Shown: in pieces, positions 6,173-52,868 of the stretch
How positions within the stretch are numbered: the stretch's first letter is position 1
Layout of the letters: the number at the start of each line of letters is the position of its first letter
NCBI GenBank assembly: GCA_964491475.1
Contig: CAZBFO010000005.1
Location: forward strand, 841 to 64,840
DNA: 64,000 nt
From: an uncultured Gammaproteobacteria bacterium
GTDB taxonomy: Bacteria; Patescibacteriota; Patescibacteriia; SG8-24
Direction of reading: 5' to 3'
Program-made: the position numbers and the translations under genes
Notes under the pieces: generated by a model
Told to the model about the DNA's origin: nothing
Databases searched by the model: none
Seen by the model: the letters and a program-made list of their open reading frames with translations, nothing else

Positions 6173-6246
6173 TTGTCCACAAGCTCACTATCTTCTGGGA
6201 AGCATAAACCTACTGCTCCTGTGGATAGTTTAAGCCATGTGGACAT
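6173..6246. promoter_or_regulatory. DnaA-box-like motifs upstream of the partial giant gene (minus strand); shares TTTATTTGTCCACA(A)GC with the region upstream of its paralogue
   Basis: TTGTCCACA 6173-6181, TGTGGATAG 6220-6228, TGTGGACAT 6238-6246. Compare 6166-6186 (ttttttatttgtccacaagc) with 52850-52872 (cactttatttgtccacagcaag). Confidence 0.45.
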
Positions 6247-6256
6247 TTGTTCCCTC

Positions 6257-6299
6257 CACGCCTCGTTGCCAAAAAAACACGCTTTGGCAACGAGGCGTG
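6257..6299. terminator. Strong hairpin terminator between the two giant minus-strand genes
   Basis: cacgcctcgttgccaaa-aaaacacgc-tttggcaacgaggcgtg, 17-bp perfect stem. Confidence 0.65.
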
Positions 6300-6335
6300 T
6301 CCCCGATTTTCATCGGGAAACGCTTAATTCAGGCT

Positions 6336-9300
6336 TTATTCTGTCTTCTTCTCTTCAGGATGCGCCTGATCGGCATCGGGCAACAAGCGACCATTCTGGG
6401 CTCCAGAAGCCTCGTCCTTGAGTTCCTTTAGCAGTTCGGCGGCGGATTCATGCTTTATGACGGGAGTAGGCGCAGCTTTGTCCACGCTTGTTTGGACATT
6501 TGAGTCTTTCTTCGGTATCTCTCCCGGCTTCGGCATAACCTTAATGCCGTCATCGCCAGTCGTGGGCGGAGACGCTTCCGGTTTGCTGCCAGTGGTCATT
6601 TTCTTCAGGCGCGCGAGCATCTTTGCCTCATAGGACTCGCCTTCTGCCACGGGCTCTGCCTTTGGCATTTCTGGTTGCGCGGCTGCAGGTGCTACGGGTG
6701 ACGGGACTGCGGCTGCAGGCGCCGCCGGAGCCGGTGCGACCGGCGGTGCGATAGGAGTCTCGATGGACTTTACCGGTGTACGGAGAGCCAACCCAGCCGG
6801 CTGGGGCGGCATGGCCGGCAGTGACGTCGAAATGCGCTCACCGCCGTCCGTTGGCGGCCCTGAAGGCGTGCCCGGATCCGCCGAAGGCACGGCTGGCGGC
6901 TTTACGACCGCTCCCGCCGCTGGCGTAGCTCCCCCTTCCGTTCGCGGCAGGTGCACGTCCACGGCGACCACATGCATGCCCTTCTCCTTGGTGTCGATCA
7001 GGTTGACCGGACCCTTCTGCTGCTTCTGGTAGCCGGGCTTCTCGAAAGTCACGTAGTAGGTGTTCTGACCCACCAAGAACGCGTAGCGCCCGCGGACGTC
7101 GGTTACCTGCGTCTCGAGCAGCTTGTTGAAGCGGGTGTCGAAGATGCGCGCCACCACGTTGGAGAGCGGCTTCTTGGACTTGTCGTCGTAAACGATGCCC
7201 CAGTTCTTCGGCTTGCGCGTAATGGACAGGCGGCGGAACAGCAGGTACATGATGACGTTTGCCCCGAACATCGCGAACATGGTCGGCGTCGGCGAAAGCG
7301 CCGTCGCCACGGCCATGGCGAGAATGGTGATGACGCCGAGGCTCTTCTGCAGGCGGCGGGCAATGCCCTCGAGCAGGATCCTGCGCGGCGTCTTTTCGAC
7401 GCTTACCGGATCGAGCGGGACGTTGGCCGTGATCGTGGTCTCCTTGGTGACCTCGATGATTTCGCCGTGATACAGGTCGATGAACTTGGCGTCTTCCTTC
7501 ATTCCGCGCAGCACGTCTGACGGGAAAACGTACGAGGTCTTCACGGCAATCATCTTGTACGTGCCGGCCTGCACGATGAAGAAGTAGCGGCCGTCCTTGT
7601 CGGTAACGGCGGAGCGCACCACGCGGCCCGTCTTGGCATCAAGCAAGCGGACGATTGCCAGGTCGATGGGCAACTTGGAGAGCGAGTTGTAGACCACGCC
7701 CCACTGCTTGCGGCGCCGGCGGGCAATGAGCATGAACGGATGTGCCAGCAAGCTCCACAGGTACAGCAGGTACGGCACCACCGTCGCGGTGGCCACGCCG
7801 GCCGCAGCGACGTTCGCCACGGTCGCAACCGTCGCCGCGGGCGCGGCGATGTCCTGCGCGTTCTGCTTCACGTAGGCGTTGCCGGCGAAATCCGCTACGG
7901 CGTCGGCGGCGATCTTCGCGGCAAAACTGACGTTGGCGATGACGTCGTCTTTCGGCGGCAGCTTGATCAGCTTCACGTCGTTGCGCAGCACGTTCTCCGT
8001 GGCAAGCGGGAACGGAAGCGTGGTCTTCGTCGCGTATTCGTCGCGTTCGACGATCAGCTTGTACGAACCGATGGGCAGGATGTAGCCAAAGCGGCCGTCG
8101 GCGTCGGTAATCTGGGGGTTCTGCTGGCTCGAAGTGCCGCCGTCCCACAAGCCGAAGTTGCCGCCGCCGTTGTCGATCATCAGCGTCACGCGAGCGCCTG
8201 CCAGCGGAGCGTTTCCGTTATCGTCAAGCACGCGCGGTCGCGGCACGGTGCGCACGATGAAGTGCACGCTGTCGGAACCGCCGTCCTTGTACTTGACGAT
8301 GACGTCCATCGGATAGTCGGCGCTGGTCGAGGGCGTGGTCACCGTGGCTTCATAGCTGGCCGTCTGCCGCATCACGTAGCCGGCGTTATTGAAGTTGATG
8401 AAGGCGCTGTCGATCTCGTGCTTGATCGAAGGATCGGGAATCATCACGGTGAACACCGACGAGCTGTAGTAATTCAGCACGCCGCCCTGCATGCGCAGCT
8501 GGATCTTTCCCGAGGTGGCGAAGTAGCGCAGAGCGTCCGGAGTCAGCTTGATGTCCGAGCTGACCGTCGGCTTCGGCACCTCGACCGGAGGCTCCTGCGG
8601 AACGATCGGGCAGTCCGCCGGGCAGTTCAGCGAGTTCTCCTCGCCGGCGCAGATGCCGTTGCCGCATATCTCGGTGCTGGGCGGCGCGTTCGACGGGACG
8701 CACTTGCCGGCCGAGCACTTGAAGCCGCCGCCGCAGGCATGCGTCTCGGTCTGGTGCTGGTTGGCTTCGTCGCAGTAGCGCTCGAGCAGGGTGGCTTCAT
8801 CGGCGCACGAGTCGGTCTCGGTCTGACCGCCGTTGAAGCTGACCGTGCCCTGCAGGTCGTAATTCTTGCCGCCGTCGCTGTCGCTGCACGACGGTCCGAC
8901 CGGCGGAGGAAGGTTCGCCAAGGGAGTGGCGTCGTCGAACGCGCCTGACGCGTAGTTCAGCACGTTATCGTAGGCGAAGGCGCCGTAGTAGTACTTGGTG
9001 CCGTTGGTGACGCCGTTGTCCATTTTGTTGTCGCCGATGCCGTCGAATACGACGGTGCCGTCGTTCGGACCGCTCGGGTTGCTTCCCGTCTTGCGCACCA
9101 CGCGCGTGCCGGCCCAATCGGCATCGCTCGGATTGTGCCAGGTCAGCTGCACTTGCGCGTCGCCGGCGGTCGCCGTCAGCAGCGTCACCGGACCCGGCGG
9201 CACGTGGTCTCCGCCCGCGGGAGTCGCCTGCGCCTGCGCAGGCGTCGAATAATTCGGCACCGCGTCGTAGGCGTAGAGCGTGTAGAAGTAGAGCGTGCCG

Positions 9301-12014
9301 TTCGCGACGGCCGTATCAAGGTAGCTCTGTTGCGGACCCGAATACACCAGCGTGCCGTCGGTGGGGCCGGTGGAGTAATCGCCGATCTTGCGCAACACCT
9401 TCACGCCCTGGAAGTCGATGGCGCTCGGATTGTTCCAGTTGAGCTGGATCTGCGAATCCCCCGGCGTCGCGGTCAGGTTGGTCACCGGTCCCGGCGGCGT
9501 GGTGTCGGCAGTTCCGGCCGGCGTGGCGTTGGCGATCGCGCCCGAGGAATAGTTGGGCACGTCGTCGTAGGCGAACACCGCGTAGTAATAGGTGACGCCG
9601 TTGGTGACGGTGAGGTCGATCTTCGAAGTGCCGCTGCCGGTGTACACCGGCGTGCCGTCGTTGGAATCGGTCGGATACGAAGTCGTCTTGCGGAGCATTT
9701 TCACGCCCACGAAGTCGGCATCGGTCGGATTTGTCCAGTTCAGGGTCACCTTCGAATCGCCCGGGGTTGCGGTCAGCCCGGAAACGTTCGCCGGCGGCGT
9801 AGTGTCCGCAAGCGTCGTGAAGGTGAAGTCGTTCGAGATGACCGTCTGGCTGCCGGTGTCCGTAGAAGAGACGCGGAAATGGTAGAGCTTTCCTTTGGTC
9901 AGGCCCGTCAGCACGATGGCATGACTGGTCGTCAAAGTGGCGCTGCTGGCAGTCGAGCCGTAGCTTGCCTGCAGGCCGTACTCCACGGTGGAGTCCGACA
10001 TGGTGCCCAGCGTGTCCCAAGTGATCGTCGCGCCCGTCTGCGTGATGGCCGTCGACTGGACGTTGGTGATGTCTGGCGGCGTGCCGTTGCAGATGTTGGC
10101 ATCGTGCAGGAAGTTGATGGTCTGCGGGTTGCCGGCACCGTCATGCGAATCGGACCACAGCAGCTGGTCCTTGCGGAGCACGCCGTGATAGTAGATTTCC
10201 GCGCGAACCACATGGTGCCACGACGAGCTTTCCGGCTGGGCGCTGAACAGCACTGCCGAGCAGTCGCGGTGATCGACATCAACGACCACGTCGTTGTAGT
10301 CGAAGTCGATGCCCTTGTCTTCGAAGCCGTAGCGGTCGATGCCCGGCGACAAGTGCGTCACCTGCACGTAATTGCCGCCGACCTTTCGCACGGTGCCGTC
10401 CGGATTGATGATGTACGGATAGAATTCGGTGGCGGTGCAGTCCACGTTGCAGGTGCCGGGGGCCGCCGCCAGCGTCTTGAAGGTCAGGTCCGCGGTGTTG
10501 GCGGAGTTGGAAGAGAGGTCCTTCGAGGTCAGCTTGTAATGATAGGTCGTGTCGGGGTTCAGGCCGGTCAGGTCGAAGCAGCGCGTCAGCGCATAGTTGG
10601 TGTCCGTCTTGGACTGGCCGTAGGCGTTGGTGATGCCGTAATCGATCAGCCCGTCGGCGGCCTCGTTCGTGTCCCAGCAGACGTGCGCCGACTCGCTGGT
10701 GATCGAGGTCACCTGAATGTTGCTGATGATCGGCGGAGTGGTGTCGGCCACGCAGGAAAGCTGCGTCACGAAGGTGGCGTCCGAGGTGAACGACTCGTTG
10801 GAAGCGGCATCGCCCGAACGCACGCGGTAATGGTACTGCGTGTTGGGCGTCAGGCCGGAAAGGATGACCGTGTGCGAAACCACCAGCGTGGCACTGCCGC
10901 TGGTCGAGGCGTACGGCGGACCGACGGGCAGGCCGTAGTCGACGTAGCTTGTCGAGTTTTCGTCGGTGGTCCAGGTGACGGTAGCCGAGCTGCACGCGGC
11001 GCTCACGTTCACGCTCGAGATGCTCGGCGGCGTGGTATCGGCCATCGAGAACGTCTGATCGCCGGAGCAGGCCTGGTTGTTCGAAGGATCCTTTGAGCAG
11101 ACCTGGTAATGATAGGTCGCGCCCTCGGTCAGCGAGCTAAGCGTCAAACAGTGGACCGCGATGTACGCGCCGTTCGATTGCTGGCTGCCGTAAGTATTCG
11201 TCAGTCCGTAATTGACCGTCGAGTCGGCGACCTCGTTGGTGTTCCAGCACACGTCGATGCTGTTGGTGGTCGCGTTCTGCGTGTGGATGTTGGTGATGAT
11301 CGGAGGGGTCACGTCCGCGCCGCCACCGCCGCCGCCGCCCGGCGGGGGTGCGCCGACCACCGTCGCCGTGATGGTCACGTCGCCGCTGTCGATGATGGAA
11401 ACGGCCATGCTGCAGATGTCGCCCGCCACCTGGCAGTCGCCCGCGCCGTCCAGCACGCCGATCGCGTAAGAACCCGCAGCCGACGGGTTCGTAAGCGTGC
11501 CGTTGGGTGCCGCACCGCCGACGGTGAACGTCACGAAAGCGCCCGCAGCGCTGCTCGTGAACGATCCGCCGCAGGGAATCACGCGGAAAACCAGACCTGC
11601 CGTATCCACCGCCACGCCTACGTTGTTGACACCGTCGGGGCAGACGACCGTAGAAACGGAAGGCCCCTGGTTGACGCCGGCGATGGTGCGGGCGGTACCG
11701 TCATTAAAGGAGAAGTCGGCTGCGGCCCACACGCCGCCCGTGGTGAACGCGCTGGTCTCCGGCAGGTCGATGGCGATCTTTTCGCCGGCCGCAAAGGTGT
11801 TGCCTCCGGACAGGTTAAAGGAGATGACGTGGTTGGCGGCAGCGCTGACGGCCTGGTTGGAGAGCTTATCCTGGCGGTTGGTGAGCTGCGCCGCGTAAAT
11901 GCGAACCACGACCGCGGTCGCCGCCACGATCAAAAACAAAGCCAAGCCCATCCACGCGTTCATGCGTCGAAGGCCCTTTGCGGCTTTGACTTTCTTTTCC
12001 CTACTCTCCTGCAT
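6336..12014 (-). CDS. Giant (1892 aa) multi-domain membrane/surface protein. It has an N-terminal signal-anchor, at least 7 Fn3-like domains (YHYQV/YHYRV/YHYKL/YHFRV motifs; three tandem TTPPGPV..LNW..GVKVLRK..YYY..AYD repeats) and a Cys-rich module. CarboxypepD_reg-like domains alternate with TM helices, and there is a Pro/Ala-rich C-terminal tail
   Basis: Single 1892-aa ORF. Domains were recognised by eye from the translation. TM segments lie at the N-terminus and at about residues 1395-1420 and 1545-1580, each followed by RRRRKQWGVVY.. or RKPKNWGIVYD.. and a DGRYxF..G.Y beta-sandwich motif. Confidence 0.75.
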   Translation of the reverse strand: MQESREKKVKAAKGLRRMNAWMGLALFLIVAATAVVVRIYAAQLTNRQDKLSNQAVSAAANHVISFNLSGGNTFAAGEKIAIDLPETSAFTTGGVWAAADFSFNDGTARTIAGVNQGPSVSTVVCPDGVNNVGVAVDTAGLVFRVIPCGGSFTSSAAGAFVTFTVGGAAPNGTLTNPSAAGSYAIGVLDGAGDCQVAGDICSMAVSIIDSGDVTITATVVGAPPPGGGGGGGADVTPPIITNIHTQNATTNSIDVCWNTNEVADSTVNYGLTNTYGSQQSNGAYIAVHCLTLSSLTEGATYHYQVCSKDPSNNQACSGDQTFSMADTTPPSISSVNVSAACSSATVTWTTDENSTSYVDYGLPVGPPYASTSGSATLVVSHTVILSGLTPNTQYHYRVRSGDAASNESFTSDATFVTQLSCVADTTPPIISNIQVTSITSESAHVCWDTNEAADGLIDYGITNAYGQSKTDTNYALTRCFDLTGLNPDTTYHYKLTSKDLSSNSANTADLTFKTLAAAPGTCNVDCTATEFYPYIINPDGTVRKVGGNYVQVTHLSPGIDRYGFEDKGIDFDYNDVVVDVDHRDCSAVLFSAQPESSSWHHVVRAEIYYHGVLRKDQLLWSDSHDGAGNPQTINFLHDANICNGTPPDITNVQSTAITQTGATITWDTLGTMSDSTVEYGLQASYGSTASSATLTTSHAIVLTGLTKGKLYHFRVSSTDTGSQTVISNDFTFTTLADTTPPANVSGLTATPGDSKVTLNWTNPTDADFVGVKMLRKTTSYPTDSNDGTPVYTGSGTSKIDLTVTNGVTYYYAVFAYDDVPNYSSGAIANATPAGTADTTPPGPVTNLTATPGDSQIQLNWNNPSAIDFQGVKVLRKIGDYSTGPTDGTLVYSGPQQSYLDTAVANGTLYFYTLYAYDAVPNYSTPAQAQATPAGGDHVPPGPVTLLTATAGDAQVQLTWHNPSDADWAGTRVVRKTGSNPSGPNDGTVVFDGIGDNKMDNGVTNGTKYYYGAFAYDNVLNYASGAFDDATPLANLPPPVGPSCSDSDGGKNYDLQGTVSFNGGQTETDSCADEATLLERYCDEANQHQTETHACGGGFKCSAGKCVPSNAPPSTEICGNGICAGEENSLNCPADCPIVPQEPPVEVPKPTVSSDIKLTPDALRYFATSGKIQLRMQGGVLNYYSSSVFTVMIPDPSIKHEIDSAFINFNNAGYVMRQTASYEATVTTPSTSADYPMDVIVKYKDGGSDSVHFIVRTVPRPRVLDDNGNAPLAGARVTLMIDNGGGNFGLWDGGTSSQQNPQITDADGRFGYILPIGSYKLIVERDEYATKTTLPFPLATENVLRNDVKLIKLPPKDDVIANVSFAAKIAADAVADFAGNAYVKQNAQDIAAPAATVATVANVAAAGVATATVVPYLLYLWSLLAHPFMLIARRRRKQWGVVYNSLSKLPIDLAIVRLLDAKTGRVVRSAVTDKDGRYFFIVQAGTYKMIAVKTSYVFPSDVLRGMKEDAKFIDLYHGEIIEVTKETTITANVPLDPVSVEKTPRRILLEGIARRLQKSLGVITILAMAVATALSPTPTMFAMFGANVIMYLLFRRLSITRKPKNWGIVYDDKSKKPLSNVVARIFDTRFNKLLETQVTDVRGRYAFLVGQNTYYVTFEKPGYQKQQKGPVNLIDTKEKGMHVVAVDVHLPRTEGGATPAAGAVVKPPAVPSADPGTPSGPPTDGGERISTSLPAMPPQPAGLALRTPVKSIETPIAPPVAPAPAAPAAAVPSPVAPAAAQPEMPKAEPVAEGESYEAKMLARLKKMTTGSKPEASPPTTGDDGIKVMPKPGEIPKKDSNVQTSVDKAAPTPVIKHESAAELLKELKDEASGAQNGRLLPDADQAHPEEKKTE

Positions 12015-12126: not shown

Positions 12127-13131
12127 TTACTGCTTCTTAGTCTTCCTCTCGTAGCGGCGAATGACCGCCTTGTTGTACCCCTTCATGCCGACCGTGAAGA
12201 ACAGGATGACGATGAGCAGCGCGAGGCCGACCAGCGTCATCATTCTCCAAGGCCAAACGGTGAAGGTGCGCACTTCCGAGAGCGTCTGGTTGTTGGAGCC
12301 GTAGTTCACGAACAGCGTGGCCTCGTACCTGCCGAAGCCGAAGTTGTTCCACTCGTTGGCCAGCTGGGTAAAGAACCCTCCCTCCTTCGGCTTGCCCGCG
12401 CCCCATCCGAAGGTGAACTTGCGGATGCTGTGCGGCAGTACGGAGCCGAACTGGTCGTTCACCTTGATGGAGGCCACCTGGCGGCCGTACCAGTTCTTGA
12501 TGAAGACGTTACCGGCGGGGCGAAGGTTGGTGTTGCCGTCGTTTTCGAACCGCATGAACATGTCGATCGGCAGCGTGTTGTACCAGAGCTTCTTGTCCTT
12601 GAAGGTGAAGTCGAGGATGCGGCCGGTCTCGTTCAGGTCGCCGCTGACGTTGACGAAGATCAGCGAGCCGAGCTTGGTTTCCACGCCGACCTCACCACCC
12701 TTAGGATCCGCCTTGCCGCTGGCCATCAGCACCGCGCCGTAGTGAGCGCCAGGCTGGGCGTCCTTGGGAATGTTGATGGCAATCGGGATGTTGGCGCGTT
12801 CCTTGGGAGCGAGCGTGTAGGTCTTGCTGGGATCGGTGATCGTGATCCACCTGGCAAGGTCGGTGCCGTCGCGCTTTTCATTCGGCGGATAGAACACCGG
12901 AATGCCGTTTTCCTCACCCTCGATGCTAGTGAAGTTCATCACCTGCACGTGGAACGTGTTCGGAGAGGTGTCCTCGTTGTACACCTTGACCACGTCCAGC
13001 ACGGTGTCGCCGGGATTCAGACGGTAGTCGACGTACGGCGGCGAGATGGTCAGCGCTTGGGCCGAAAGTGCGGGCATGAGCGTTACCAATACCGTGGCTG
13101 CTGTGGCGACTTTTGCGAGAAACTTCTTCAT
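12127..13131 (-). CDS. Secreted protein with C-terminal TM anchor and basic tail; DUF916/DUF3324 (CscA)-like cell-surface protein
   Basis: Probable start is MKKFLAKVATAATVLVTLMPALSAQA (signal peptide). The architecture matches DUF916 proteins of WxL/Csc clusters: about 300-aa ectodomain, motif INIPKDAQPGAHYGAVLMAS, C-terminal TM (WRMMTLVGLALLIVILFFTV) and a KR-rich tail. The family assignment is from memory, not from a search. Confidence 0.55.
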   Translation of the reverse strand: MKKFLAKVATAATVLVTLMPALSAQALTISPPYVDYRLNPGDTVLDVVKVYNEDTSPNTFHVQVMNFTSIEGEENGIPVFYPPNEKRDGTDLARWITITDPSKTYTLAPKERANIPIAINIPKDAQPGAHYGAVLMASGKADPKGGEVGVETKLGSLIFVNVSGDLNETGRILDFTFKDKKLWYNTLPIDMFMRFENDGNTNLRPAGNVFIKNWYGRQVASIKVNDQFGSVLPHSIRKFTFGWGAGKPKEGGFFTQLANEWNNFGFGRYEATLFVNYGSNNQTLSEVRTFTVWPWRMMTLVGLALLIVILFFTVGMKGYNKAVIRRYERKTKKQ

Positions 13132-13234
13132 AACGTCGTTACAAGAATAAAATCTTCCTTTTCGACCGTGGCAGCTAATCTCCACGGGAGAGTCCCCCTC
13201 CCCGGAGGGAGAGAGGGAGCTCGTCCCGCAAAGA

Positions 13235-14275
13235 CTAGAAGGTGCCCGTGGCCACGAAGGTCAGGACGTCCGTGTAGTCGTTGTGTGCAGCGGTCAACGA
13301 ATTGGCGTTGGCGTTGACGATGATCTCGCCGACACCCGTGCCGACCGGACCGCCGGCCGTGTTCAGGATGTTCGTCGGAGTCAAGGTCGAGAGCGCCTTA
13401 ACGTCGTTCGTGGTACCGCCCGGAGCGCAGGTGCCCGCGTTATACGGGGAAGCTGCCTGGAACGTACCAGTGGTCGCCGACGGCGGTGTGACCGTGTTCA
13501 CGCACAGGCCGTAGTTGGCGTTGGCGCTAGCCATCGCAGCTGCGGCGTTCGGGATCGTGTCCAACGGAGCCGAGGTCGACTTGAGCGCGGCATTCAACGA
13601 GAGAACTGTCACGACTGCGCCGCTTGAGGCGTTTGTCGAGAGGTTCGCCCAGATGCTGTCGATTGCCGCGTTGTCCGACGACTTCACCGTGCCCGGAGTG
13701 AGCACTCCGAACGGTACGTCATACACGGGACCCTCGGACGCGTTATTCAGGTTGGCGTTGAGGTCGAACGTGATTGACGGGTCGACCGTCGCGGTGACAG
13801 TCACCTGGTCGCTGTCATCAAGAGCGACAGCGAACGTGCCGGTGGTGGCAGCGGTACCGGTGATGGTGACCGTGCGGCTACCTGCAGTCGTGTCGTCGTT
13901 GGTGGCTGCCGCTTCGGTGATCGTAGCGACGTCGCCAGCCGCACAACCAGTGGTCGTGACTTTGAGGACGTTGCTAGCCGAGGTGTTGTCGGCAATCGTG
14001 CCGCCCGAAGGAGTGCAAGTACCCGTGGCAGTGGCAGGGAAAGTCCAGCCAGCGCCGACGTTCTGGTACGTGAAGTCCAAGTTGCCATTAACGAAGGACG
14101 CGGGAAGCGTCAGCGTGACGGTGTGGTCTGACGTCGCGCCGAGAGCCTGGCGGCTCAAGGTGTCCGACATCAGCGTTGCGTTATCGGCCATTGCCGGGGA
14201 AACGGCGGCGAACATGGCGAGCATGGTCGCGGCGGCCGTAACCTTGGCGCCGAATTTCATGAATTTGTTCTGCAT
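13235..14275 (-). CDS. Secreted Thr/Ala/Gly-rich surface protein with conserved C-terminal motif DYTDVLTFVATGTF (WxL-like, F replacing W); paralogue of 15037..15891
   Basis: N-terminal signal peptide (MKFGAKVTAAATMLAMFAAVSPAMA), low-complexity T/A/G-rich body, C-terminus shared with the neighbouring paralogue. Confidence 0.55.
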   Translation of the reverse strand: MQNKFMKFGAKVTAAATMLAMFAAVSPAMADNATLMSDTLSRQALGATSDHTVTLTLPASFVNGNLDFTYQNVGAGWTFPATATGTCTPSGGTIADNTSASNVLKVTTTGCAAGDVATITEAAATNDDTTAGSRTVTITGTAATTGTFAVALDDSDQVTVTATVDPSITFDLNANLNNASEGPVYDVPFGVLTPGTVKSSDNAAIDSIWANLSTNASSGAVVTVLSLNAALKSTSAPLDTIPNAAAAMASANANYGLCVNTVTPPSATTGTFQAASPYNAGTCAPGGTTNDVKALSTLTPTNILNTAGGPVGTGVGEIIVNANANSLTAAHNDYTDVLTFVATGTF

Positions 14276-14637
14276 GTTTTTAGTCCTTTATGCCAGTCTG
14301 CTGCACCGGGTTAGAAACGCTTGCCACAATTGGGTTGTGGGCGTAGCCACCTGGCGTGGCCAGATGACTAGCCAATCCTCCACTCTCGAGCTATGGAAGA
14401 CCGGAGTAGATGCCAAGCGTGATGCAGAGCTGGTTGTTAATGTGACTAGAACTCGTCCGTACCTTCCCGCGTAGAGAAAGTGCATTTAGTCATTCTCCCG
14501 GACAGAATCGAAGAGGTCCTACACCCTCCGAGATGCATTAGAGATGACGTATCGACCTTTAATTCCGGTCGGTCCATTGCTGAACCAACCATAAACCGCG
14601 GGGCATTCCCCCCGCGCCCCTCCACACGCCAGTCCGG

Positions 14638-14660
14638 TAATCCACACCAACTGTGGATAA
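14638..14660. promoter_or_regulatory. Inverted pair of DnaA-box 9-mers (TAATCCACA ccaac TGTGGATAA)
   Basis: Lies in the 761-bp ORF-less spacer between the two WxL-like paralogues and is preceded by a cgcgggg-cattcc-ccccgcg hairpin. Confidence 0.45.
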
Positions 14661-15036
14661 CCTGTGTCTGACCTGTGAAGAAGTGCGGAGGCATGCCTTT
14701 AAGAGCAACGCCGCGTCGCTGCTATACACGTCGCAAACCTATCGAGTTGTGAGAGCGCGGCCGACGAGTCCGATGACCATTGCGGTCGTCGTGAACTCGA
14801 CCAGAAGCCGGAACAACTTGATTTTTGTTTTTTTGCACATACGAGCCTTCTGCCGGTTAAGGCTAAGTTCTCCGTGCCTAAAAACTGCGACCTTTTCGCG
14901 CCCCTTTTGTGGAGGGGCGGGGCCGATCCCAGAGCCATGCTTCTCTTGGATCGACCTCGCACCTTCACTTGTCATTTGTCTACGCTTTTCTGGACAACCG
15001 CTTGTTGCTCGATGCCGCTCATTCGCGGCCCCGTCG

Positions 15037-15891
15037 CTAGTACGTCGCAGTCCCAATGAACGTCAACGTGTCTGTGTAGTCGCTCCCTGCAGCCGTACCG
15101 TTGCTGATCGCTGCTTTGACGAACACTTCTGCCTGTCCGCCAAGCAACTTGCCGGTGGAAGAAAGCACCGTATTCGCCGTCGTCGATACGAGACCAACGT
15201 TGTGGGCACTTGTCGTACAGGTGCTGGCGTAGGGCGAAATCGGATTAAACGTGGTCGGGCTGGCTCCGTCCTGGGTTGCATTGGCCACGCAAATGCCGAA
15301 GCCGGCCGCACCAGGTGTAAGCAGGGCTGTCGCCGAAGAAATCAAATCTGCCGTCGAGACCCGCTTCAGGCCATTGTTGTTATCGACAACGGTCACGATG
15401 GTCCCGCCCGCGCCGTTGCTTTCGGCATTGATGAACACGGAGTTGATGGTGCTGTTATCACTAGTGTTTACCGATCCTGTCGTCAGCGTAGCGAGAGCCA
15501 CTCCTGCGCCGGCCGTACCGGGCGCGGAAGTCCCCTCCTTCACGGACATCGTGATGTACGGCACGTTTGAACCGAAACACTGAAAACCGGAACAGGTCTT
15601 GAAGTTCGCGCTGCTCAAATTTTCACCGGTGGCCAAATCGCCGAGCGTATCGTTGGCTTTGTAGCTCGCCGAGCTGCTGTTGCCGCCACCTTGGCTCAAC
15701 ACATCTTGCTGCACCTTGTAGCTGGCTGAACTCATCGTTTCTGCGAACGCAAACTCACTCGTAGGAAGTACGAGTGCGATAACCACAAAAACCGCAGTTA
15801 GCGTTTGGCGAGTCTTAAGCCCAAGCATGGATGGCTCAAAGATAACTTGCCTTATGACGGTATTGTAACATTTTTTTGTCCCTTTGTCCAA
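15037..15891 (-). CDS. Secreted Thr/Ala/Ser-rich surface protein with conserved C-terminal motif DYTDTLTFIGTATY (WxL-like); paralogue of 13235..14275
   Basis: Signal peptide/TM near the N-terminus (TLTAVFVVIALVLPTSEFAFA). The true start is probably internal, at about 15828 (MLGLKT..). The C-terminal 14 aa are conserved with the paralogue. Confidence 0.55.
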   Translation of the reverse strand: MDKGTKKCYNTVIRQVIFEPSMLGLKTRQTLTAVFVVIALVLPTSEFAFAETMSSASYKVQQDVLSQGGGNSSSASYKANDTLGDLATGENLSSANFKTCSGFQCFGSNVPYITMSVKEGTSAPGTAGAGVALATLTTGSVNTSDNSTINSVFINAESNGAGGTIVTVVDNNNGLKRVSTADLISSATALLTPGAAGFGICVANATQDGASPTTFNPISPYASTCTTSAHNVGLVSTTANTVLSSTGKLLGGQAEVFVKAAISNGTAAGSDYTDTLTFIGTATY

Positions 15892-16024
15892 GCTGAAACG
15901 TGGCTAATGTTAGCCTAAAAAAAGGCAATTTCGCCTCAATTTTTACTTATCAACAGAACCGAGGAGACGATTAAGCTCAATGACTATTTAAGTTGTTCAC
16001 ATAATTGGGTACATATTCACACTT

Positions 16025-16685
16025 TTATCCACATTTAAAATTTAACCTTTATTTATTGGGTTTTTTTATCCACACAGCTTGTGTACATGTGTGAATTTGT
16101 GGGAATAACTTTGGATTCTCTTTTAAAATTGGTGAAAAATGGCACCGATGGTGTCGGCAGATCTTCTGCTTTCGTTGCTTTTCATACACAGGTCTGGATT
16201 TCATTCACAATGCTATTAGAAATGGACTATGTTGCAGCAAGTCACACCGCGATCAAATCGGCGGATTTCTCTTAATAGGCGCAATGGTCTGCTTTGTTGT
16301 ACCCGACTTACATGAAGTACTATTTGTCGCTGTATAAGCCATTTATTTAGCGTCGCATAATTAATGACAGTAATTTTAATGTAATACGCACCATTTATAG
16401 AAACGCTGCCTCGTTTTCATTTTGTTTCACGTGAAACACATTTTGTGACTGGTAAAATGCACTACAATATAATCTCCAACTGACAAAAAATATGGTCCAT
16501 TTAAATATGCCCGTGCAATTAATCTTCAAAAAGTCGGCATGTCTGTTCCACGTGAAACATCCATAATCCACATATTTGACCCACTTATCACCATAAGTAG
16601 CATAGTTATCCACAGGTAATGCACCAAAAATGGCTGCTCGAAGAATTCATCCACAGCAAAAGGATTAGACATAAACATATCCACT
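16025..16685. promoter_or_regulatory. Cluster of DnaA-box 9-mers in a 1.3-kb AT-rich ORF-less island
   Basis: Perfect TTATCCACA at 16025-16033, 16066-16074 and 16606-16614. One-mismatch boxes lie at 16564-16572 (TAATCCACA), 16648-16656 (TCATCCACA) and 16923-16931 (TGTGGATAC); ATATCCACT at 16677-16685 has two mismatches. Confidence 0.55.
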
Positions 16686-28673: not shown

Positions 28674-29831
28674 TTACTGCCTGATGGGCATCACGATGTA
28701 CAGGTACTCCTGCATTGCATGTCCGTCCGCATATCCGCGCATCACGCACGGGCTCATGCCGTCGATCAGCTGCAGGATGACATGCTCGGAATCGATGTTG
28801 TTCACTCCATCGAGGAAATACTTGAAGTTCACCGTTATCGACCCCTGCTTGCCCTGTATTGCCCCTCCAAGCTCCACAGCGTGCTCACCGGTCTGATTAT
28901 TGGTACTGGAGAGCCTGATCGATGAGTCTGGCGTAAAGGTAACGAGAATGTCGTTCAATCCCGTTCTGGAGAACAGGCTGGCCGTTTTCACTGCTCGTGA
29001 CAATTCCTCCTTGCTGATCACCACCTCGGTTTCAAACCGGTCGGGGATAAGTTGTCGATAATCGGGATACTTACCCTCAATAGTCCGGGAAATCAGCTCA
29101 ACCGTGTCGTACACGAACTGCACCTGATTGTCGCTGACCTGAATTTCAATATTCGCCGGATTGTCCAAAGCGTCTCGGAAGACGCCCAGGATGCGGATAA
29201 CCTCCGAAACCGTCCGAGAAGGCACAATTATCGAGAATGGCTCGGAAATCTGCGTGCTGACCTTGGTATCGACCGAGATAGTCCTTTCAGCAAGCCTGTA
29301 GCTGTCCGTAGCAGCCAAAATCAAATCTAATCCACCGTCCCTGGGGACAAACTTGAACAAAACACCGCTAATTTCCGGGCGAGACTCATTCGGAGCAACC
29401 GCAAACAGCACCTGTCCGACAGCCTTCTTCAGATCCGCAACCTTCACGGTGAACTTGCGTTGACTCTCAATCGTCGGAATCAGAGGAAACTCGGAGGCGG
29501 CAATGCCATTCAGCTTCGTCTGGTAGGTTCCACAAGCCACTGTGAGCGCGTTACCGGACATTTCCACGTCCACGCGCTCCTTGGGCAGCAAAGAGACGTA
29601 ATCAGCAAACAACTTTGATGGCACCGTGAACTCACCGCCAGCCTCAATCTTCCCGCGAACCGCGCATTTCACGGCAATTTCCAAGTTGGTAGCCATGAAC
29701 CTCAACACTTTGTCGTCCGCCTTGATAAGAACGTTACCGAGGATCGGCAAGTTCACGTTCTTGCCGGCGATGTGGCTCACGATAGAGAGTCCTTGATTCA
29801 AATTTTCTTGCGTGTAGGAAAATTTCATCAC
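28674..29831 (-). CDS. dnaN: DNA polymerase III beta sliding clamp
   Basis: MKFSYTQENLNQGLSIVSHIAGK.., three-domain clamp. The ATG start is probably at 29828. Confidence 0.9.
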   Translation of the reverse strand: MMKFSYTQENLNQGLSIVSHIAGKNVNLPILGNVLIKADDKVLRFMATNLEIAVKCAVRGKIEAGGEFTVPSKLFADYVSLLPKERVDVEMSGNALTVACGTYQTKLNGIAASEFPLIPTIESQRKFTVKVADLKKAVGQVLFAVAPNESRPEISGVLFKFVPRDGGLDLILAATDSYRLAERTISVDTKVSTQISEPFSIIVPSRTVSEVIRILGVFRDALDNPANIEIQVSDNQVQFVYDTVELISRTIEGKYPDYRQLIPDRFETEVVISKEELSRAVKTASLFSRTGLNDILVTFTPDSSIRLSSTNNQTGEHAVELGGAIQGKQGSITVNFKYFLDGVNNIDSEHVILQLIDGMSPCVMRGYADGHAMQEYLYIVMPIRQ

Positions 29832-29975
29832 AACAATATCGTTCTTAAATATATTTATATATTACTGTGGTGGTTGTAGGTGAGTGGATAGCGGGGAAAA
29901 GTCACCTACGATTGCTGGGTTGAGCCACCTGAACCTGTGGAAGCATGTGGGGTACCACGGGAGAACTGGTGGTAC
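29832..29975. promoter_or_regulatory. Candidate oriC part II: AT-rich unwinding stretch plus DnaA-box-like motifs in the dnaA-dnaN spacer
   Basis: caacaatatcgttcttaaatatatttatatattactgtgg (AT-rich 29832-29872) followed by gtggatagc, ctgtggaag and ttccacagg. Confidence 0.4.
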
Positions 29976-30096: not shown

Positions 30097-31500
30097 CTAT
30101 GTGTTGTACAAGCGCTGCTTGATGAGGTCGAGATCCTGCCGGACCTTCGGACTGGTTTCCAACTCACCTGCAATCTTGGAGTAGGCGTGCATGGCCGTGG
30201 TGTGGTCGCGACCGCCGAGTTCGTGACCGATTGACGGATAGGAGGCGCCGATTTCCTCACGCATCAGGTACATGATGACCTGACGGGGGAAAGCGAGGCG
30301 CTTTTCGCGGCATTTTCCGCTCATATCGGCCACCGTAACGTCGTAGTAGGAGGCAACCGTGTTGACGATGTGCTTGGCCGTGACGTTCTTCTTGGACTGG
30401 GTGGGACCGAAGCTGGAAAGCAGAGTTTTGGCTGCATCTAGCGTCGGTTTGGTGTTCTTGAACTGGTGGTAGGCGATGATTTTGTTGAGTGCACCTTCCA
30501 ATTCACGGACATTGGACTGGATAACTGTGGCAATGTAGCGGACGATTTCGGTATCCAGGTCATAGCTGCGCTCCTTGCACTTTGTTTCAAGGATAGCGAT
30601 GCGGGTTTCAAAGTCCGGGCTGGAGATATCCACCGTCATTCCCCACTCGAAACGGGAGATGAGGCGGTGCTCGAGGGCTGGAATCTGCTTTGGCGGCCGG
30701 TCAGAGGTGAGGACAACCTGCTTATTGTTCTGATGCAGGGCGTTGAAGGTGTGGAAGAACTCTTCTTGAGTGCCATCCTTGCCCGTCAGGAACTGGATGT
30801 CGTCGATCATCAGCAGGTCGACCGAGCGATAGGTGTCCTTGAATTCCTTGCCGCGGCCGCTTTTGACAGCGTGGATAAATTCGCTGGTGAACTTTTCACA
30901 GGTCACATACAGGACTTTGGCCTCCGGATTCTTGGTGAGAAGAGCGTTTCCAATGGCCTGGAGCAAGTGCGTTTTACCGAGACCGACACCGCCATAGACG
31001 AACAGCGGGTTGTACTTAGTGCCCGGATTCTCCGAGACAGCCATGGCCGCCGCGTGCGCCAGTTCGTTTCCCTTACCGACGATAAAGGTTTCAAAGGTGT
31101 ACTTAGCGCTCAACTTATTGTCAGTAGAATACTCTTTTTGCGCTAAGTTATGCGAAGTTTCAGGCCTTACGATAGTAGCAACTTCGTTGGCGGTTGGCGC
31201 GATGACCTGGAACGTTTCCTGGGACAACGGCTTATTGCCGAGGTTCATGGGGCGGACGTCCACCTTGTAAATGATCTCCTTGAAACCGGCGTTACCCACA
31301 GTCTGGAGCGACTTGAGGATAGAAGCGTTGTACTTCTTTTCCAACCAGGCCTTGGTGAACGTGTTGGGAACGCTGATGACGACCCTTTGGCCCTCGCAGG
31401 ACGAGATGAAGGTGTTCTTGAACCACGTGGTGAAGTTCGCCTTGCTCAATGTGAGCTCCAATTCACCGAGAACAGCCTGCCAAAGTTCGTGCGTATTCAT
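30097..31500 (-). CDS. dnaA: Chromosomal replication initiator DnaA
   Basis: True start MNTHELWQAVLGELE.. (ATG complement at about 31500). AAA+ Walker A GGVGLGKTHL, C-terminal HTH (AFPRQVIMYLMRE..), DnaA signature. Confidence 0.9.
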   Translation of the reverse strand: MNTHELWQAVLGELELTLSKANFTTWFKNTFISSCEGQRVVISVPNTFTKAWLEKKYNASILKSLQTVGNAGFKEIIYKVDVRPMNLGNKPLSQETFQVIAPTANEVATIVRPETSHNLAQKEYSTDNKLSAKYTFETFIVGKGNELAHAAAMAVSENPGTKYNPLFVYGGVGLGKTHLLQAIGNALLTKNPEAKVLYVTCEKFTSEFIHAVKSGRGKEFKDTYRSVDLLMIDDIQFLTGKDGTQEEFFHTFNALHQNNKQVVLTSDRPPKQIPALEHRLISRFEWGMTVDISSPDFETRIAILETKCKERSYDLDTEIVRYIATVIQSNVRELEGALNKIIAYHQFKNTKPTLDAAKTLLSSFGPTQSKKNVTAKHIVNTVASYYDVTVADMSGKCREKRLAFPRQVIMYLMREEIGASYPSIGHELGGRDHTTAMHAYSKIAGELETSPKVRQDLDLIKQRLYNT

Positions 31501-31775
31501 AGTATTGATGCGTCGAAAGACAAAGGCGAAAATATTTTGAGGCTGAATACAGTCTAAGACAGCAAAACATATTTGAAAAGCGGCCGAACTGGGCACAGAT
31601 TGTGTACCAATTGTGGATATCTTTCGATTTAAAAGCAAGTGTGGATGCACTGTGGGTTAGTCAACCCCATATGATGTGTTATCAACAGGTTCTTAACACC
31701 ATATGTGGTGTGTCTTGCCAAAAATGGGCAATTCTGGCAGGATAGAGCGACTTCGAATCAGATAAGTGATTTGTT
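31501..31775. promoter_or_regulatory. Candidate oriC part I / dnaA promoter region with DnaA boxes
   Basis: TGTGGATAT (31612-31620), TGTGGATGC (31640-31648), TTATCAACA and TGTGGGTTA in the dnaA-rpmH intergenic region; AT-rich tttcgatttaaaagc. Confidence 0.5.
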
Positions 31776-31913
31776 ATGCCCAAGCGCACACTCCAGCGCA
31801 ACCCGCGCAAGATGAAGAAAAAGCACGGTTTTCTGAACCGCATGCGCACCACCGGTGGCCGCGTCGTTCTCAAGCGTCGCCGCGCCAAGGGTCGCAAGAA
31901 GCTCTCCGTATAA
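31776..31913 (+). CDS. rpmH: 50S ribosomal protein L34
   Basis: [45 protein letters not shown], found by manual translation (too short for the ORF track). Confidence 0.9.
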
Positions 31914-31915
31914 AC

Positions 31916-45723: not shown

Positions 45724-46119
45724 TTAGAACTCCTGGGTGAAAGATTTCTTGCACTCGATACAGGAGCTGGACGCGGGACGGGCGCGGAGGCGCTTCTCGT
45801 CGATTTCCTTGTTGCAGTACTTGCAGATGCCGTAGGTGCCCTTTTTGATGCGCTCAAGCGCCTTCTCGACGTCGCGCAGGGAAGCTTCGATGGTGCGCTC
45901 CAAGGTCAGGTTGGTGCTGAACATGTTCACTTCCTCGGCATTCTCGTCTTCCTTGTCGCCCATGTTGGGGAACTCCACGTCATAACCTTCGCTGTTCTTG
46001 GGGTTCTGTTTGGCAAACTCGGCCAGCTCGCCGCGGAGCTTGGTCTCTTCCTTGGTAAGCAGCGTCTCAACTTCGGCGAGAAAATCTTTCTTCATAAAAA
46101 TGTGACCACAGAGGGTCAT
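45724..46119 (-). CDS. DksA/TraR-family C4 zinc-finger protein
   Basis: Coiled-coil N-terminus and C-terminal CKYCNKEI....CIECK zinc finger. The start is probably MKKDFLAE (46095). Confidence 0.65.
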   Translation of the reverse strand: MTLCGHIFMKKDFLAEVETLLTKEETKLRGELAEFAKQNPKNSEGYDVEFPNMGDKEDENAEEVNMFSTNLTLERTIEASLRDVEKALERIKKGTYGICKYCNKEIDEKRLRARPASSSCIECKKSFTQEF

Positions 46120-46227
46120 TGTTTACGGCCTCTGGAGTAGCCCTTGATCATTAGACGGGCGCATGGAGACTCCGGAGGAATGTGCCCACAGTATACGATA
46201 CCCACGCTAAAAGGCAAATATTAAGCG

Positions 46228-46256
46228 AAAAACCGCCATTTGGCGGCTTTTTTGGG
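46228..46256. terminator. Bidirectional hairpin terminator
   Basis: gaaaaaccgccatttggcggcttttttg. Confidence 0.6.
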
Positions 46257-46710
46257 AAAAAGAAAATCGGCTCCAGAAGTTTTTGGCCGATGAAAGAATT
46301 CATGCCTCACTGGAGCCGATAAAGGCCCCTGATATCTACCCGTTAACGGGTGTAATGCCGACATTCCTCAAGCAAGGAGTGTCCGTTATACACCCGAACG
46401 CGTAAGCGTATGCAGGGGTGAAAGAACAAAGCCTTCTCTACCATTCCCCGGTAGAGCCCCCTACCCCGAAGGGCAAAATGGAGGATACCGAATGCCTTTT
46501 TGAATTTTTGTTTTTGGTATTCAAGGTGGGCACAAGGATTAGTAAAGAAGAAGGAATCGGTCCCGACGGGGTGTGCGTCAGAAGCGCTTCCTTTACCGCG
46601 TGATTGTCAAAGGTCCTTACCCTCGATGAACATAGTATACCAGTTTTAAGGAGGAGGGTCAATCCGCCCATATAGACAAAATACAGCTAAATAAAGCGGT
46701 ATTTTGTGGC

Positions 46711-46815
46711 TGTGGATATGCGTGAGTAAACATTTTGTTCGGACACGCTCGCCTTAACTTCGCCTTATCCACATATCATTTCTTATATCCACAGAAGAAC
46801 AGCTCGTTACCCACA
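46711..46815. promoter_or_regulatory. DnaA-box cluster
   Basis: TGTGGATAT 46711-46719, TTATCCACA 46765-46773 (perfect), ATATCCACA 46785-46793, TTACCCACA 46807-46815. Confidence 0.5.
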
Positions 46816-50381: not shown

Positions 50382-50439
50382 ATGGATGTTTGCGCCGGCA
50401 TCTCGAGTCGTCCGAAAGCTTTAGACCATCGCAGGCTTG

Positions 50440-50620
50440 CGCTGCAGGTCTACGTGTCTTCGGGCGAGGTGGAGCCCCGGCGTGGTTAAAGTGCGTTTCC
50501 TAAAATGCGGATCGGCTCGTGGCCGAAAACCGCTCCGCAAGAGGCCGCTCGAGATGGCCGTCTTGCGAGTCGGTTTCCGGCCGCGCGGTCGGAAAGGCGC
50601 TTTCGCGCCGGAAACGCTAG
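50440..50620. repeat. Possible degenerate copy (D) of the GC-rich structured repeat family
   Basis: Imperfect inverted repeat ggccgaaaaccgctccgcaagaggcc / ggccgtcttgcgagtcggtttccggcc and an atgcggatcggctcgtggccga core. Confidence 0.3.
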
Positions 50621-51303: not shown

Positions 51304-51384
51304 AAAAGGGGCCTAGTTTGCGAGCCGAAGCGGCTCATAAAAAACGCGAGAACGCCGGCACGAGGCCGGCGTTCATCGGTGTCG

Positions 51385-51651
51385 TTATGCTGAAATTTTG
51401 AGGGCCTCCGACAATTCGGCGTATCCCTTGGCATCCTCGCGCTTCAGGTACTTGAGCAAGCGGCGGCGCTCGCTGACCTTGCGCATAAGACCTTTCCTAG
51501 AGGAAAAGTCCTTCTTGTGCGAGAGAAGGTGGCCAGTGAGGTCCTTGATCTCCGCCGTGAGGATGGCGATCTGGACCTGGGGGGAGCCGGTGTCCTTGTC
51601 GTGAGTCTTGTACTTCTCAATGATCTTCTCCTTTTGGCGCTTGTCCAACAT
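51385..51651 (-). CDS. rpsO: 30S ribosomal protein S15
   Basis: MLDKRQKEKIIEKYKTHDKDTGSPQVQIAILTAEIKDLTGHL.. is a typical S15. Confidence 0.9.
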   Translation of the reverse strand: MLDKRQKEKIIEKYKTHDKDTGSPQVQIAILTAEIKDLTGHLLSHKKDFSSRKGLMRKVSERRRLLKYLKREDAKGYAELSEALKISA

Positions 51652-51837
51652 ATTCGGTGCCTCCGGCGATTGCCGTGGCTGTTCGCGAGCATCCTAGCCG
51701 AAGCCGGGACGTCGTATGAGTTACCTGCCGATACTAGCAGCAGGCTTTGGCTTTGTAAAGGGGTATTTTGAGCCAAAAAGAAAAGGGATTGCGCTGGGCA
51801 ATCCCCCGAGAAAGGGCCTTTTTTCGGCCCGCTCTCT

Positions 51838-52626
51838 TTACGAGGCGTAGCCGCCGACGGCTTCGGAGACCATTCGAGGTCCGGAGAGGGGCGCGGACCC
51901 CTCGTCAACCGTCCCCGAGGGGACGATTTCGTCAGAGCGAGGCGGTGATTCCGACTCGAGCTCCGTCAAAAGGTCCTCCGAGGCAAGCTCGGTCTTGAGG
52001 GCGCCTCCGAACCCGAACTTTCTGGCCTCCTCCGCGCCACCGAAGAATCGCTCGATTGCGGCTTGGTCACGCGCGGTCATGACGGGTTGCATGGTCGGTA
52101 TCCGCGCCTCCTCGTCCTCGTAGATGTCGCACTCCTCGACCTCCATCGGTTCGTCGCCGTCGTCGAGGAACTGATCCACGGGGATTGCCCCCGTGAACTG
52201 GACACACCCCTTTGGCAGGCTCACGAACGGGTCGTTCACGAGCACGACAGCGGCGGTGACGTCGTTGCTGACGGGCGGGGCGGTGAGCGAGGGGGCCGGC
52301 GGAGCCGGCATCCGAATAACCGCGATGATGTTGTCGCACATCATCTTGAAGGCCCGGTTCCTCTCCCCGGAACCTGCGGTCTCGGGGGGAGGATTCAGGC
52401 AGATCCTGCGAGCCTCGGCGAGGTGCCCGGTGATGAGCAGCTGCCGAAGCTCGGCAGCAGTCGAACCGATGGCGTTCGGACGGAGACCGAACGCCCGAAG
52501 GATGTTCCAAATCTCCTTGATGTCCGTCGCGACGTTCCGTGCGCGGGCCTGCTCCTTGGTCTTAGCCAGGATTTGGCTGGCAAGAGAAAGGAGATTATAG
52601 ACCCCATTGGTCGACGATTGATGCAT
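51838..52626 (-). CDS. Hypothetical protein (262 aa), acidic C-terminal half
   Basis: Long ORF with plausible composition; no recognised family. Confidence 0.35.
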   Translation of the reverse strand: MHQSSTNGVYNLLSLASQILAKTKEQARARNVATDIKEIWNILRAFGLRPNAIGSTAAELRQLLITGHLAEARRICLNPPPETAGSGERNRAFKMMCDNIIAVIRMPAPPAPSLTAPPVSNDVTAAVVLVNDPFVSLPKGCVQFTGAIPVDQFLDDGDEPMEVEECDIYEDEEARIPTMQPVMTARDQAAIERFFGGAEEARKFGFGGALKTELASEDLLTELESESPPRSDEIVPSGTVDEGSAPLSGPRMVSEAVGGYAS

Positions 52627-52741
52627 TTTGAACCTCTGTGGTTGGTGTTATGGAACAGAATGTCTTTCAACCCAGCAGGGTCGAAAGAACCGATAATTAT
52701 TAGCAGAAACAAGCCATTTTGTCAACGGTGGAAGGTGTACA

Positions 52742-52868
52742 TGTGGATAGAATTTATATTGTGGATAATTCTGTGCACAAAAAGTATGCATAGTGGAAAA
52801 CTTATCCACCTTCTTTGATCAAATAGACGCAAGAACTATGTTGAAGTGAACACTTTATTTGTCCACAG
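52742..52868. promoter_or_regulatory. DnaA-box cluster in AT-rich region upstream of the 2623-aa giant gene
   Basis: TGTGGATAG 52742-52750, TGTGGATAA 52760-52768 (perfect), TTATCCACC 52802-52810, TTGTCCACA 52860-52868. It also contains GTGTACATGTG, which is shared with 16081-16091. Confidence 0.5.

Follow-up and report, generated by a model that had tools for sequence, protein, structure and literature searches.

DnaA acts as a transcription factor at dnaA, nrdAB and mioC in Escherichia coli, at sda and dnaA in Bacillus subtilis, and at gcrA and ftsZ in Caulobacter. Further cases of regulation by DnaA have also been described (PMC11317965, PMC13438810). The closest parallel to the elements considered here is offered by the six origin-proximal DnaA-box clusters (DBCs) of B. 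subtilis, some of which control adjacent genes and which together hold initiation back (Okumura et al. 2012, PMC3245932); an in vitro map of DnaA binding exists for this bacterium (PMC4447404), and in E. coli the boxes are reported to accumulate near the origin (PMC12371093). Here we examine clusters of the DnaA-box 9-mer TTATCCACA in a 64,000-nucleotide stretch of a patescibacterial chromosome (hereafter the window), which corresponds to positions 841-64840 of the 129-kb contig CAZBFO010000005.1 in a genome of 11 contigs, 1.46 Mb and 62% G+C. Given that rpmH (31777-31914, + strand), dnaA (30097-31500, - strand) and dnaN (28674-29831, - strand) all lie within it, the window represents the classical origin region of a Patescibacteria chromosome; the closest matches to its DnaA (58-59% identity) come from Patescibacteria metagenome-assembled genomes labelled Parcubacteria, Magasanikbacteria and Doudnabacteria. 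We propose, with a probability of roughly 65%, that its box clusters are of the B. subtilis kind and serve surface genes as DnaA-dependent operators, probably doubling as a sink for DnaA.

As in B. subtilis, several intergenic box clusters are situated outside oriC, with a concentration around the origin, the genes that follow them vary between species, and parS sites of the Soj/Spo0J type occur close to the origin. While some of the B. subtilis clusters regulate their neighbours and the whole set jointly restrains initiation, what is known for the present ones is their positional conservation. The differences lie in the phylum, in the neighbouring genes, which here code for giant phage-fibre-like surface proteins and a predicted structured RNA, in the junction of one cluster with the only perfect parS pair of the genome, and in the occurrence of single boxes in core promoters throughout the genome, such as that of the pilin. 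With the promoters known to be controlled by DnaA they share a 9-mer within or beside the core promoter, a placement that in those systems results in repression or activation depending on position; however, the targets here are pilin and large surface proteins rather than genes of replication or nucleotide metabolism. Full-text searches of the literature gave no paper on DnaA boxes in Patescibacteria, and the present observations would extend clusters of the B. subtilis type to this phylum, albeit with a different set of targets and a parS-linked cluster. A preliminary description of the window had named five intergenic clusters (at 6173, 14638, 16025, 46711 and 52742), all of which are present, but had taken them as a single class. 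Instead, the clusters of the window, the dnaA-proximal sites included, are of several kinds set within an origin region: a module of the origin-unwinding type in the dnaA-dnaN spacer, boxes in the position expected for autoregulation, a parS-linked locus at 16 kb, and arrays 50-200 bp upstream of three strong sigma-70-type promoters, of which the array at 46.7 kb precedes the structured RNA.

The exact 9-mer occurs in the window at 14652 (-), 16025 (+), 16066 (+), 16606 (+), 46765 (+) and 52760 (-), i.e. six times as against 0.17 expected, a number reached in none of 100 dinucleotide shuffles. With one mismatch allowed there are 32 copies (6 exact and 26 one-mismatch) against 5.9 expected and a shuffle maximum of 11, and the window copies conform to the DnaA-box consensus (TTATCCACA, or TTWTNCACA with limited degeneracy). 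The preliminary description had suggested counting the motif genome-wide and looking for enrichment upstream of genes: the count yields 33 exact copies, 24 of them in intergenic DNA (13% of the genome by our ad hoc gene model, and at 56% G+C richer in A+T than the genes), all 24 lying in differing sequence contexts. With expectations from a fourth-order Markov model fitted to the intergenic sequence, TTATCCACA is the most over-represented intergenic 9-mer (23 versus 0.8 expected) and outranks the words of the TTGACA -35 and the TGnTATACT extended -10 elements, a precedence over the promoter hexamers that sets this genome apart from the known DnaA-controlled systems. One-mismatch variants number 60 in intergenic DNA as opposed to 22.5 expected (2.7-fold), with positions 2, 4 and 8 being the strictest and 1, 5 and 7 the loosest, a pattern that roughly matches the known degeneracy of DnaA boxes. 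The window, which makes up 4.4% of the genome, accounts for 32 of the 151 boxes that have no more than one mismatch (p = 1e-13), together with all four of its clusters of at least three boxes (15947-16074, 16564-16655, 46711-46815 and 52742-52867, with 3-4 boxes per ~130 bp), in addition to pairs of boxes with at most one mismatch at 6173-6228 and 14638-14660. All the clusters outside oriC are at most ~24 kb from dnaA-dnaN, where we place the putative origin, distances being judged within the 129-kb contig. When the reversed word, with its equal base composition, is used as a control across lineages, boxes outnumber controls 33 to 2 in this genome, 337 to 33 in 13 genomes of its own family, 105 to 6 in the sister family of the order, 1849 to 740 in a phylum sample of 120 genomes and 550 to 338 in 9 Bacillota genomes.

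Two of the arrays precede giant fibre genes, here termed A and C. Gene A (2-5995, - strand) runs off the contig end, whereas gene C (52985-60856, + strand) codes for a protein of 2623 aa; the earlier claim that they are paralogous holds, their first 194 residues being 63% identical and a central block 61%. Searches against Pfam assigned no family to either of them or to several neighbouring genes. The box array of gene A (6173-6246) comprises TTGTCCACA at 6173 (+), CTATCCACA at 6220 (-) and a two-mismatch ATGTCCACA at 6238-6246 (-), and an inverted pair of the form TGTGGAYAA-N8-nnnTCCACA is kept in the orthologous promoter of G001, a genome of the same genus. This array lies ~80-150 bp upstream of a promoter predicted from the sequence (6065-6093, - strand) with a TTGAGA -35, a 17-nt spacer and an extended -10 (TGGTAAAAT), the G001 equivalent of which reads TTGAGG-N17-TGGTAGATT. 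The upstream neighbour of gene A runs in the same direction and faces it with its 3' end and terminator, and therefore the boxes cannot belong to a divergently transcribed gene. In front of gene C a four-box array (52742-52867) consists of CTATCCACA (-), TTATCCACA (-), TTATCCACC (+) and TTGTCCACA (+), and is situated ~55-180 bp upstream of a promoter likewise read from the sequence (52922-52950, + strand; TTGAAA-N17-TATACT with an extended TG), whose TTGAAA -35 also occurs in the homologous promoters of G007 and G010. Measured from the start codons, the boxes of the two genes are 118-251 bp upstream, a wider range than the 120-180 bp originally given. The word GTGTACATGTG that was said to accompany the boxes at both 16081 and 52739 is indeed found at 16081, but its second copy abuts the gene C array at 52735.

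To place these arrays in a comparative setting, the N-terminal 272 residues of gene C were searched in 20 relatives and ~1.4 kb upstream of each match was scanned. All eight free-standing promoters (genes A and C themselves, G001, G002, two in G010, G007 and G011, together representing five genera) have one to five boxes at -126 to -270 and none elsewhere in the ~1.4 kb upstream, while four examined family loci located directly behind another gene have no upstream box. Homologues of the giant genes (in the window at 2-12014 and 52985-60856) are also found no more than ~20-40 kb from dnaA in seven or more relatives, representing both families (e.g. G007:C7, G010:C47, G016:C1 and G015:C2), indicating that their origin-proximal placement is itself conserved.

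A second line of evidence comes from the major type IV pilin, identified by means of the Pfam N_methyl motif. The first gene of its tandem array has a box within ~100 bp upstream in 13 of 13 genomes drawn from both families of the order; it is perfect in 12 of them and has one mismatch in G008, and in 12 of the 13 it follows the extended -10 element by 0-20 nt. In the sister family the box directly abuts the extended -10 (TGCTAGAC-TGTGGATAA), and in the present genome (C1:20300-20420) a perfect TGTGGATAA lies 20 nt past it, with tandem pilin paralogues downstream. Such a location, at or just past the predicted transcription start, would be of the repressor type. A leader stem-loop following the box also looks conserved, with compensating changes between genera apparent by eye; however, given that the box straddles the inferred start in one family, an operator acting at the DNA level explains both families better than an RNA element. 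Elsewhere in the genome, several genes for secreted or surface proteins flank the 24 intergenic perfect boxes, among them those for proteins of 1151 and 1188 residues in addition to the type IV pilin. Genes of at least 1000 aa with an upstream region of their own have boxes upstream in 7 of 18 cases, compared to 50 of 476 for the others (p = 0.002). Perfect boxes are found at most 60 nt from an extended -10 in 8 of 23 cases, as against 11% of random intergenic positions (p = 0.002), and occupy the spacer, the -35 element, the region ~47-49 nt upstream of the inferred start, or positions past the -10; three of them start ~46-49 nt upstream of the inferred transcription start.

Under the proposed operator function, DnaA occupancy would adjust the transcription of the cell-surface apparatus (fibres, pili and further large secreted proteins) to how much DnaA is present and to its nucleotide state. 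Single perfect boxes might report the total level of DnaA, while arrays composed of one strong and several weak boxes might need cooperative binding of DnaA-ATP; transcription of the pilus, the fibres and the RNA could in this way be tied to the replication cycle. The early-replicated, origin-proximal arrays would in addition draw free DnaA away from oriC after initiation, an uptake by clusters that has been shown in B. subtilis (PMC3245932) and proposed in E. coli (PMC12371093). More tentatively, and with the odds rather against so broad a version, DnaA might be one of the main controls on the surface apparatus for host attachment (the major type IV pilin, the giant phage-fibre-like proteins, large secreted proteins and the ~400-nt RNA) in the order and perhaps in the wider phylum, such that attachment structures are made according to the state of replication and the early-replicated sites, one of them fused to a parS pair, feed back on initiation. 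Patescibacteria are ultra-small, and many are thought to be host-dependent and to have few transcription factors. An order-wide site identical to the DnaA box at pilin and fibre promoters provides a concrete hypothesis for the control of pili and fibres and for a link between growth and attachment. Working positions for this lineage's origin module, centromere-like parS locus and putative new structured RNA are a further outcome.

The spacer between dnaA and dnaN contains, directly upstream of dnaN, a module of the unwinding type (29832-29900, - strand), which in the dnaA-to-dnaN direction reads TTTTCCCCG-CTATCCACT-cac-CTACAACCACCACAG, followed by a 25-nt A+T tract and the dnaN start codon; that is, two tandem weak boxes (29883-29900), a 3-nt G+C spacer, a CTA-led tract with 3-nt periodicity and the A+T tract. 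The same layout is kept in 7 of 7 examined genomes of the order, and an equal order and orientation are seen in Bacillaceae (TTATCCACA-TATCCACA-agac-CTACTACTATTACTAC-A+T) and in other Patescibacteria. It resembles the basal unwinding system (BUS) as defined for bacterial oriC (PMC8287927; also PMC6669920), for which we used the rule that a DnaA box of no more than two mismatches adjoins an A+T-rich tract and has three or more NAN trios no further than 16 bp away. The resemblance comprises the tandem boxes, the short G+C spacer, the first CTA trio, the 3-nt periodicity, the A+T tract right before dnaN and the common orientation. On the other hand, the boxes are weak (two and three mismatches, CTATCCACT having two) and the trios degenerate, a central adenine appearing in the canonical frame only in the first trio (CTA), in departure from the published rule of at least three consecutive NAN trios. 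We regard the dnaA-dnaN spacer, on grounds of this layout, as quite probably the origin unwinding site. On the other side of dnaA, the rpmH-dnaA spacer, which contains the dnaA promoter region, has five boxes at 31601-31687: the tandem ATATCCACA-at-TGGTACACA, in which TTGGTACACA follows ATATCCACA after 2 nt, and the three further weak boxes GCATCCACA, TAACCCACA and TTATCAACA. The tandem is kept as ATATCCACA-aT-TnnTACACA in G001, G002, G007 and G010. This arrangement is consistent with the usual layout for autoregulation of dnaA, as known from other DnaA-controlled promoters, or with the upstream half of a two-part origin. Sites had previously been placed on both sides of dnaA; those at 31.5-31.8 kb include two one-mismatch boxes (31612 and 31679), but the 29.8-30.0 kb region has only boxes with two or more mismatches.

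A further cluster is found 13-15 kb away from dnaA. Its left half (15947-16107, + strand) contains TTATCAACA at 15947, TTGTTCACA at 15993, two perfect boxes at 16025 and 16066, which are 41 bp apart with a 32-nt A+T-rich spacer between them, and three degenerate reverse boxes in 10-bp phase (16079-16107) that include the above-mentioned GTGTACATGTG. The right half (16564-16685, + strand) contains TAATCCACA at 16564, TTATCCACA at 16606, TCATCCACA at 16647 and a two-mismatch ATATCCACT at 16677, so that in the region 16025-16685 the + strand carries all five boxes of no more than one mismatch, alongside two-mismatch copies. Between the perfect boxes of the two halves are TGTTTCACGTGAAACA (16423-16438) and TGTTCCACGTGAAACA (16544-16559), perfect copies of the 16-bp palindrome TGTTNCACGTGAAACA that we take to be the parS consensus. 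As a gene for ParB with a ParB_N domain is encoded on another contig (C3:2243), we class both sites as parS. The left-half layout, with its two perfect boxes 41 bp apart and three phased weak boxes including GTGTACATGTG, is common to G001, G002, G007 and G010, and the homologous loci of relatives have 1-5 parS-like copies with at most two mismatches. With its non-coding location and ~five high-affinity boxes replicated early near oriC, the locus is reminiscent of E. coli datA and of the raised box density around the E. coli origin, which is associated with chromosomal titration (PMC12371093); however, neither datA nor DARS is known to carry parS. In E. coli, datA works together with an IHF site and with Hda/RIDA, and promotes the hydrolysis of DnaA-ATP. 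We read it as a high-affinity DnaA-box cluster joined to a predicted centromere-like site, not as a promoter cluster.

An alternative is that this cluster at 15.9-16.7 kb, and not the dnaA-dnaN spacer, is the true replication origin. This alternative was initially favoured for its parS sites and box count. No cluster in the genome is larger (three perfect, two one-mismatch and the phased degenerate boxes); the locus occupies an 846-bp non-coding stretch with ~40% G+C in a genome of 62%, carries the only two perfect parS sites of the 1.46 Mb, and has counterparts in both families of the order, where boxes are again combined with parS-like copies at 13-15 kb from dnaA. We lowered the alternative to an unlikely reading because of the conserved unwinding module in the dnaA-dnaN spacer, whose layout is that known from Bacillaceae and other Patescibacteria (PMC8287927); moreover, no trio tract is discernible by eye adjoining the 16-kb boxes. 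The summed third-codon-position G-C skew has a weak local minimum at dnaN/dnaA rather than at 16 kb, though gene-specific noise dominates it. Since gene-specific bias, that of the giant genes in particular, dominates both the raw and the third-codon-position curves of the 129-kb contig, which cannot separate 16 kb from 30 kb, location of the origin by G-C skew was dropped.

DnaA titration, a well-known role of origin-proximal clusters, had been left out of the two readings offered in the preliminary description, namely DnaA regulating surface-protein genes or a converged regulator. It is conceivable, though improbable in our estimation, that the clusters act on replication only, as sites that either titrate or modulate DnaA, in the manner of datA, DARS or the B. 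subtilis clusters, and that are placed in long intergenic regions near oriC, leaving the giant genes unaffected. All four clusters of at least three boxes are indeed within ~23 kb of dnaA, the arrays lie 50-200 bp upstream of the -35 and not on the promoter, synteny of the giant genes with dnaA holds throughout the order and would by itself make their upstream regions origin-proximal, and there is precedent in both B. subtilis and E. coli (PMC3245932, PMC12371093). However, the position relative to the giant-gene start (-126 to -270) is kept in five genera, including at loci on other contigs, other contigs have single perfect boxes within core promoters, the order-wide pilin operator among them, and genes for large surface proteins elsewhere in the genome are enriched in boxes.

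We retain the reading of the clusters as operators that probably double as a sink, though several considerations weigh against it. The giant-gene homologues of the sister family either lack boxes altogether or show just one GTATCCACA at -41, and the inverted pair at 14.6 kb has no counterpart cluster in G001, the nearest relative examined. The giant-gene arrays stand at a good distance upstream of the -35, do not fix the sign of any regulation, and might do no more than sequester DnaA. The gene model and promoter calls are ad hoc and of our own making. Furthermore, the fold-enrichment of the motif is due in part to the low background of an A+T-rich word in a genome of 62% G+C: in absolute terms the excess in the family is ~23 boxes per genome, which is ~2.5 times the mean of the phylum sample and similar in number to that of the much larger Bacillota genomes.

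That DnaA itself is the reader of these sites is indicated by both the protein and the form of the motif. The dnaA product (467 aa) contains the Pfam domains DnaA_N, Bac_DnaA and Bac_DnaA_C. An alignment of its domain IV with PDB 1J1V (the E. coli DnaA-DNA complex) and 8BTG (B. subtilis DnaA) shows that R399, P423, D433, H434, T435 and H439 (E. coli numbering), the base-contacting residues of the 1J1V structure, are all conserved. A search of the genome for a second DnaA domain IV found none, the dnaA gene having the sole copy, and a DnaA paralogue as the reader was accordingly ruled out. The sites are asymmetric, non-palindromic 9-mers in variable orientation with spacings of 10-11, 17-18 or ~41 bp, which fits a monomeric DnaA domain IV but not a dimeric helix-turn-helix regulator. 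The repeated 9-mer, maintained by selection at defined promoter positions, is almost certainly a DnaA-binding site, and we infer that its copies are genuine high-affinity DnaA boxes.

The converse possibility, that some other DNA-binding regulator reads the same 9-mer and runs the surface-protein regulon, appears very improbable. A regulon of pilin, fibre and secreted-protein genes is admittedly unlike the classical DnaA regulons, and the spacers flanking dnaA in this genome lack a perfect TTATCCACA. However, relatives have perfect or near-perfect boxes in their origin modules, the motif equals the DnaA consensus at 9 of 9 positions and is conserved in exact form across the order, its asymmetry is of the monomer type, and the canonical domain IV is predicted to bind such sites in any case. 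No candidate protein was found for this role; the reading is not needed, and nothing supports it. Of the two branches put forward at the outset, the comparative evidence (giant-gene arrays in five genera, the order-wide pilin box, the 7 of 18 large genes versus 50 of 476, and a sole, canonical domain IV) favours the one in which DnaA regulates surface-protein genes, while the converged regulator is left without support. Finally, that the recurrence stems from chance, from the A+T-rich composition of intergenic DNA (56% G+C) or from copies of a single repeat element can be dismissed, given that shuffles, the intergenic Markov model and the reversed word all fall far below the observed counts, contrary to the random expectation once envisaged, that the sites are positionally conserved between genera, and that the flanks all differ.

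The array at 46711-46815 comprises four boxes, ATATCCACA (-), TTATCCACA, ATATCCACA and TTACCCACA, located 49-150 bp upstream of the -35 of a consensus promoter (TTGACC-N17-TGGTATACT, 46634-46662, - strand) that would drive a ~400-nt RNA (46225-46627) with an intrinsic terminator at its end. This region is 90% identical to its counterpart in G001, compared to 75% for the flanking genes, and has a fold z-score of -7.97. Rfam returned no match to it and gave only tRNAs in the non-coding stretches; identification with tmRNA or RNase P RNA was ruled out, as these are encoded at C3:46711 and C2:45868. We predict from these features that 46225-46627 is an unannotated structured RNA gene. Downstream of it lies a DksA/TraR-type gene (45724-46119), and syntenic arrays occur between the PNPase gene region and the DksA-type gene in G001, G004 and G016.

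The remaining cluster is an inverted pair, TAATCCACA-N5-TGTGGATAA (14638-14660), ~370 bp upstream of a gene for a 346-aa secreted protein (13235-14275, - strand). A leader-like stretch of ~360 nt (14276-14640, - strand) separates the two, with a G+C-rich hairpin right after the pair, and a possible 33-codon open reading frame for a membrane peptide is seen upstream of the pair at ~14739-14840. By eye, the 346-aa protein shares a C-terminal module ending in ...YTDVLTF(V/I)ATGTF with secreted proteins of 284 aa (15037-15891) and 1188 aa (C2:48881-52447); the genes for the 346-aa and 1188-aa proteins have a perfect DnaA box upstream, and that for the 284-aa protein flanks the 16-kb locus. A palindrome, GGCTAA-N3-TTAGCC, is found at 15902-15918 as well as at C1:243735, C3:329403, C3:63753 and C4:37324, ~10 nt upstream of the -35, and related words are enriched among intergenic 9-mers (TTTGGCTAA, 14 versus 1.5; TTAGCCTTA, 9 versus 0.45). 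A second regulator may bind there, but as the palindrome occurs at only ~five promoters we set it aside as a co-regulator site. The gene at 12127-13185, next to that of the 346-aa protein, codes for a WxL-interacting peptidoglycan-binding domain.

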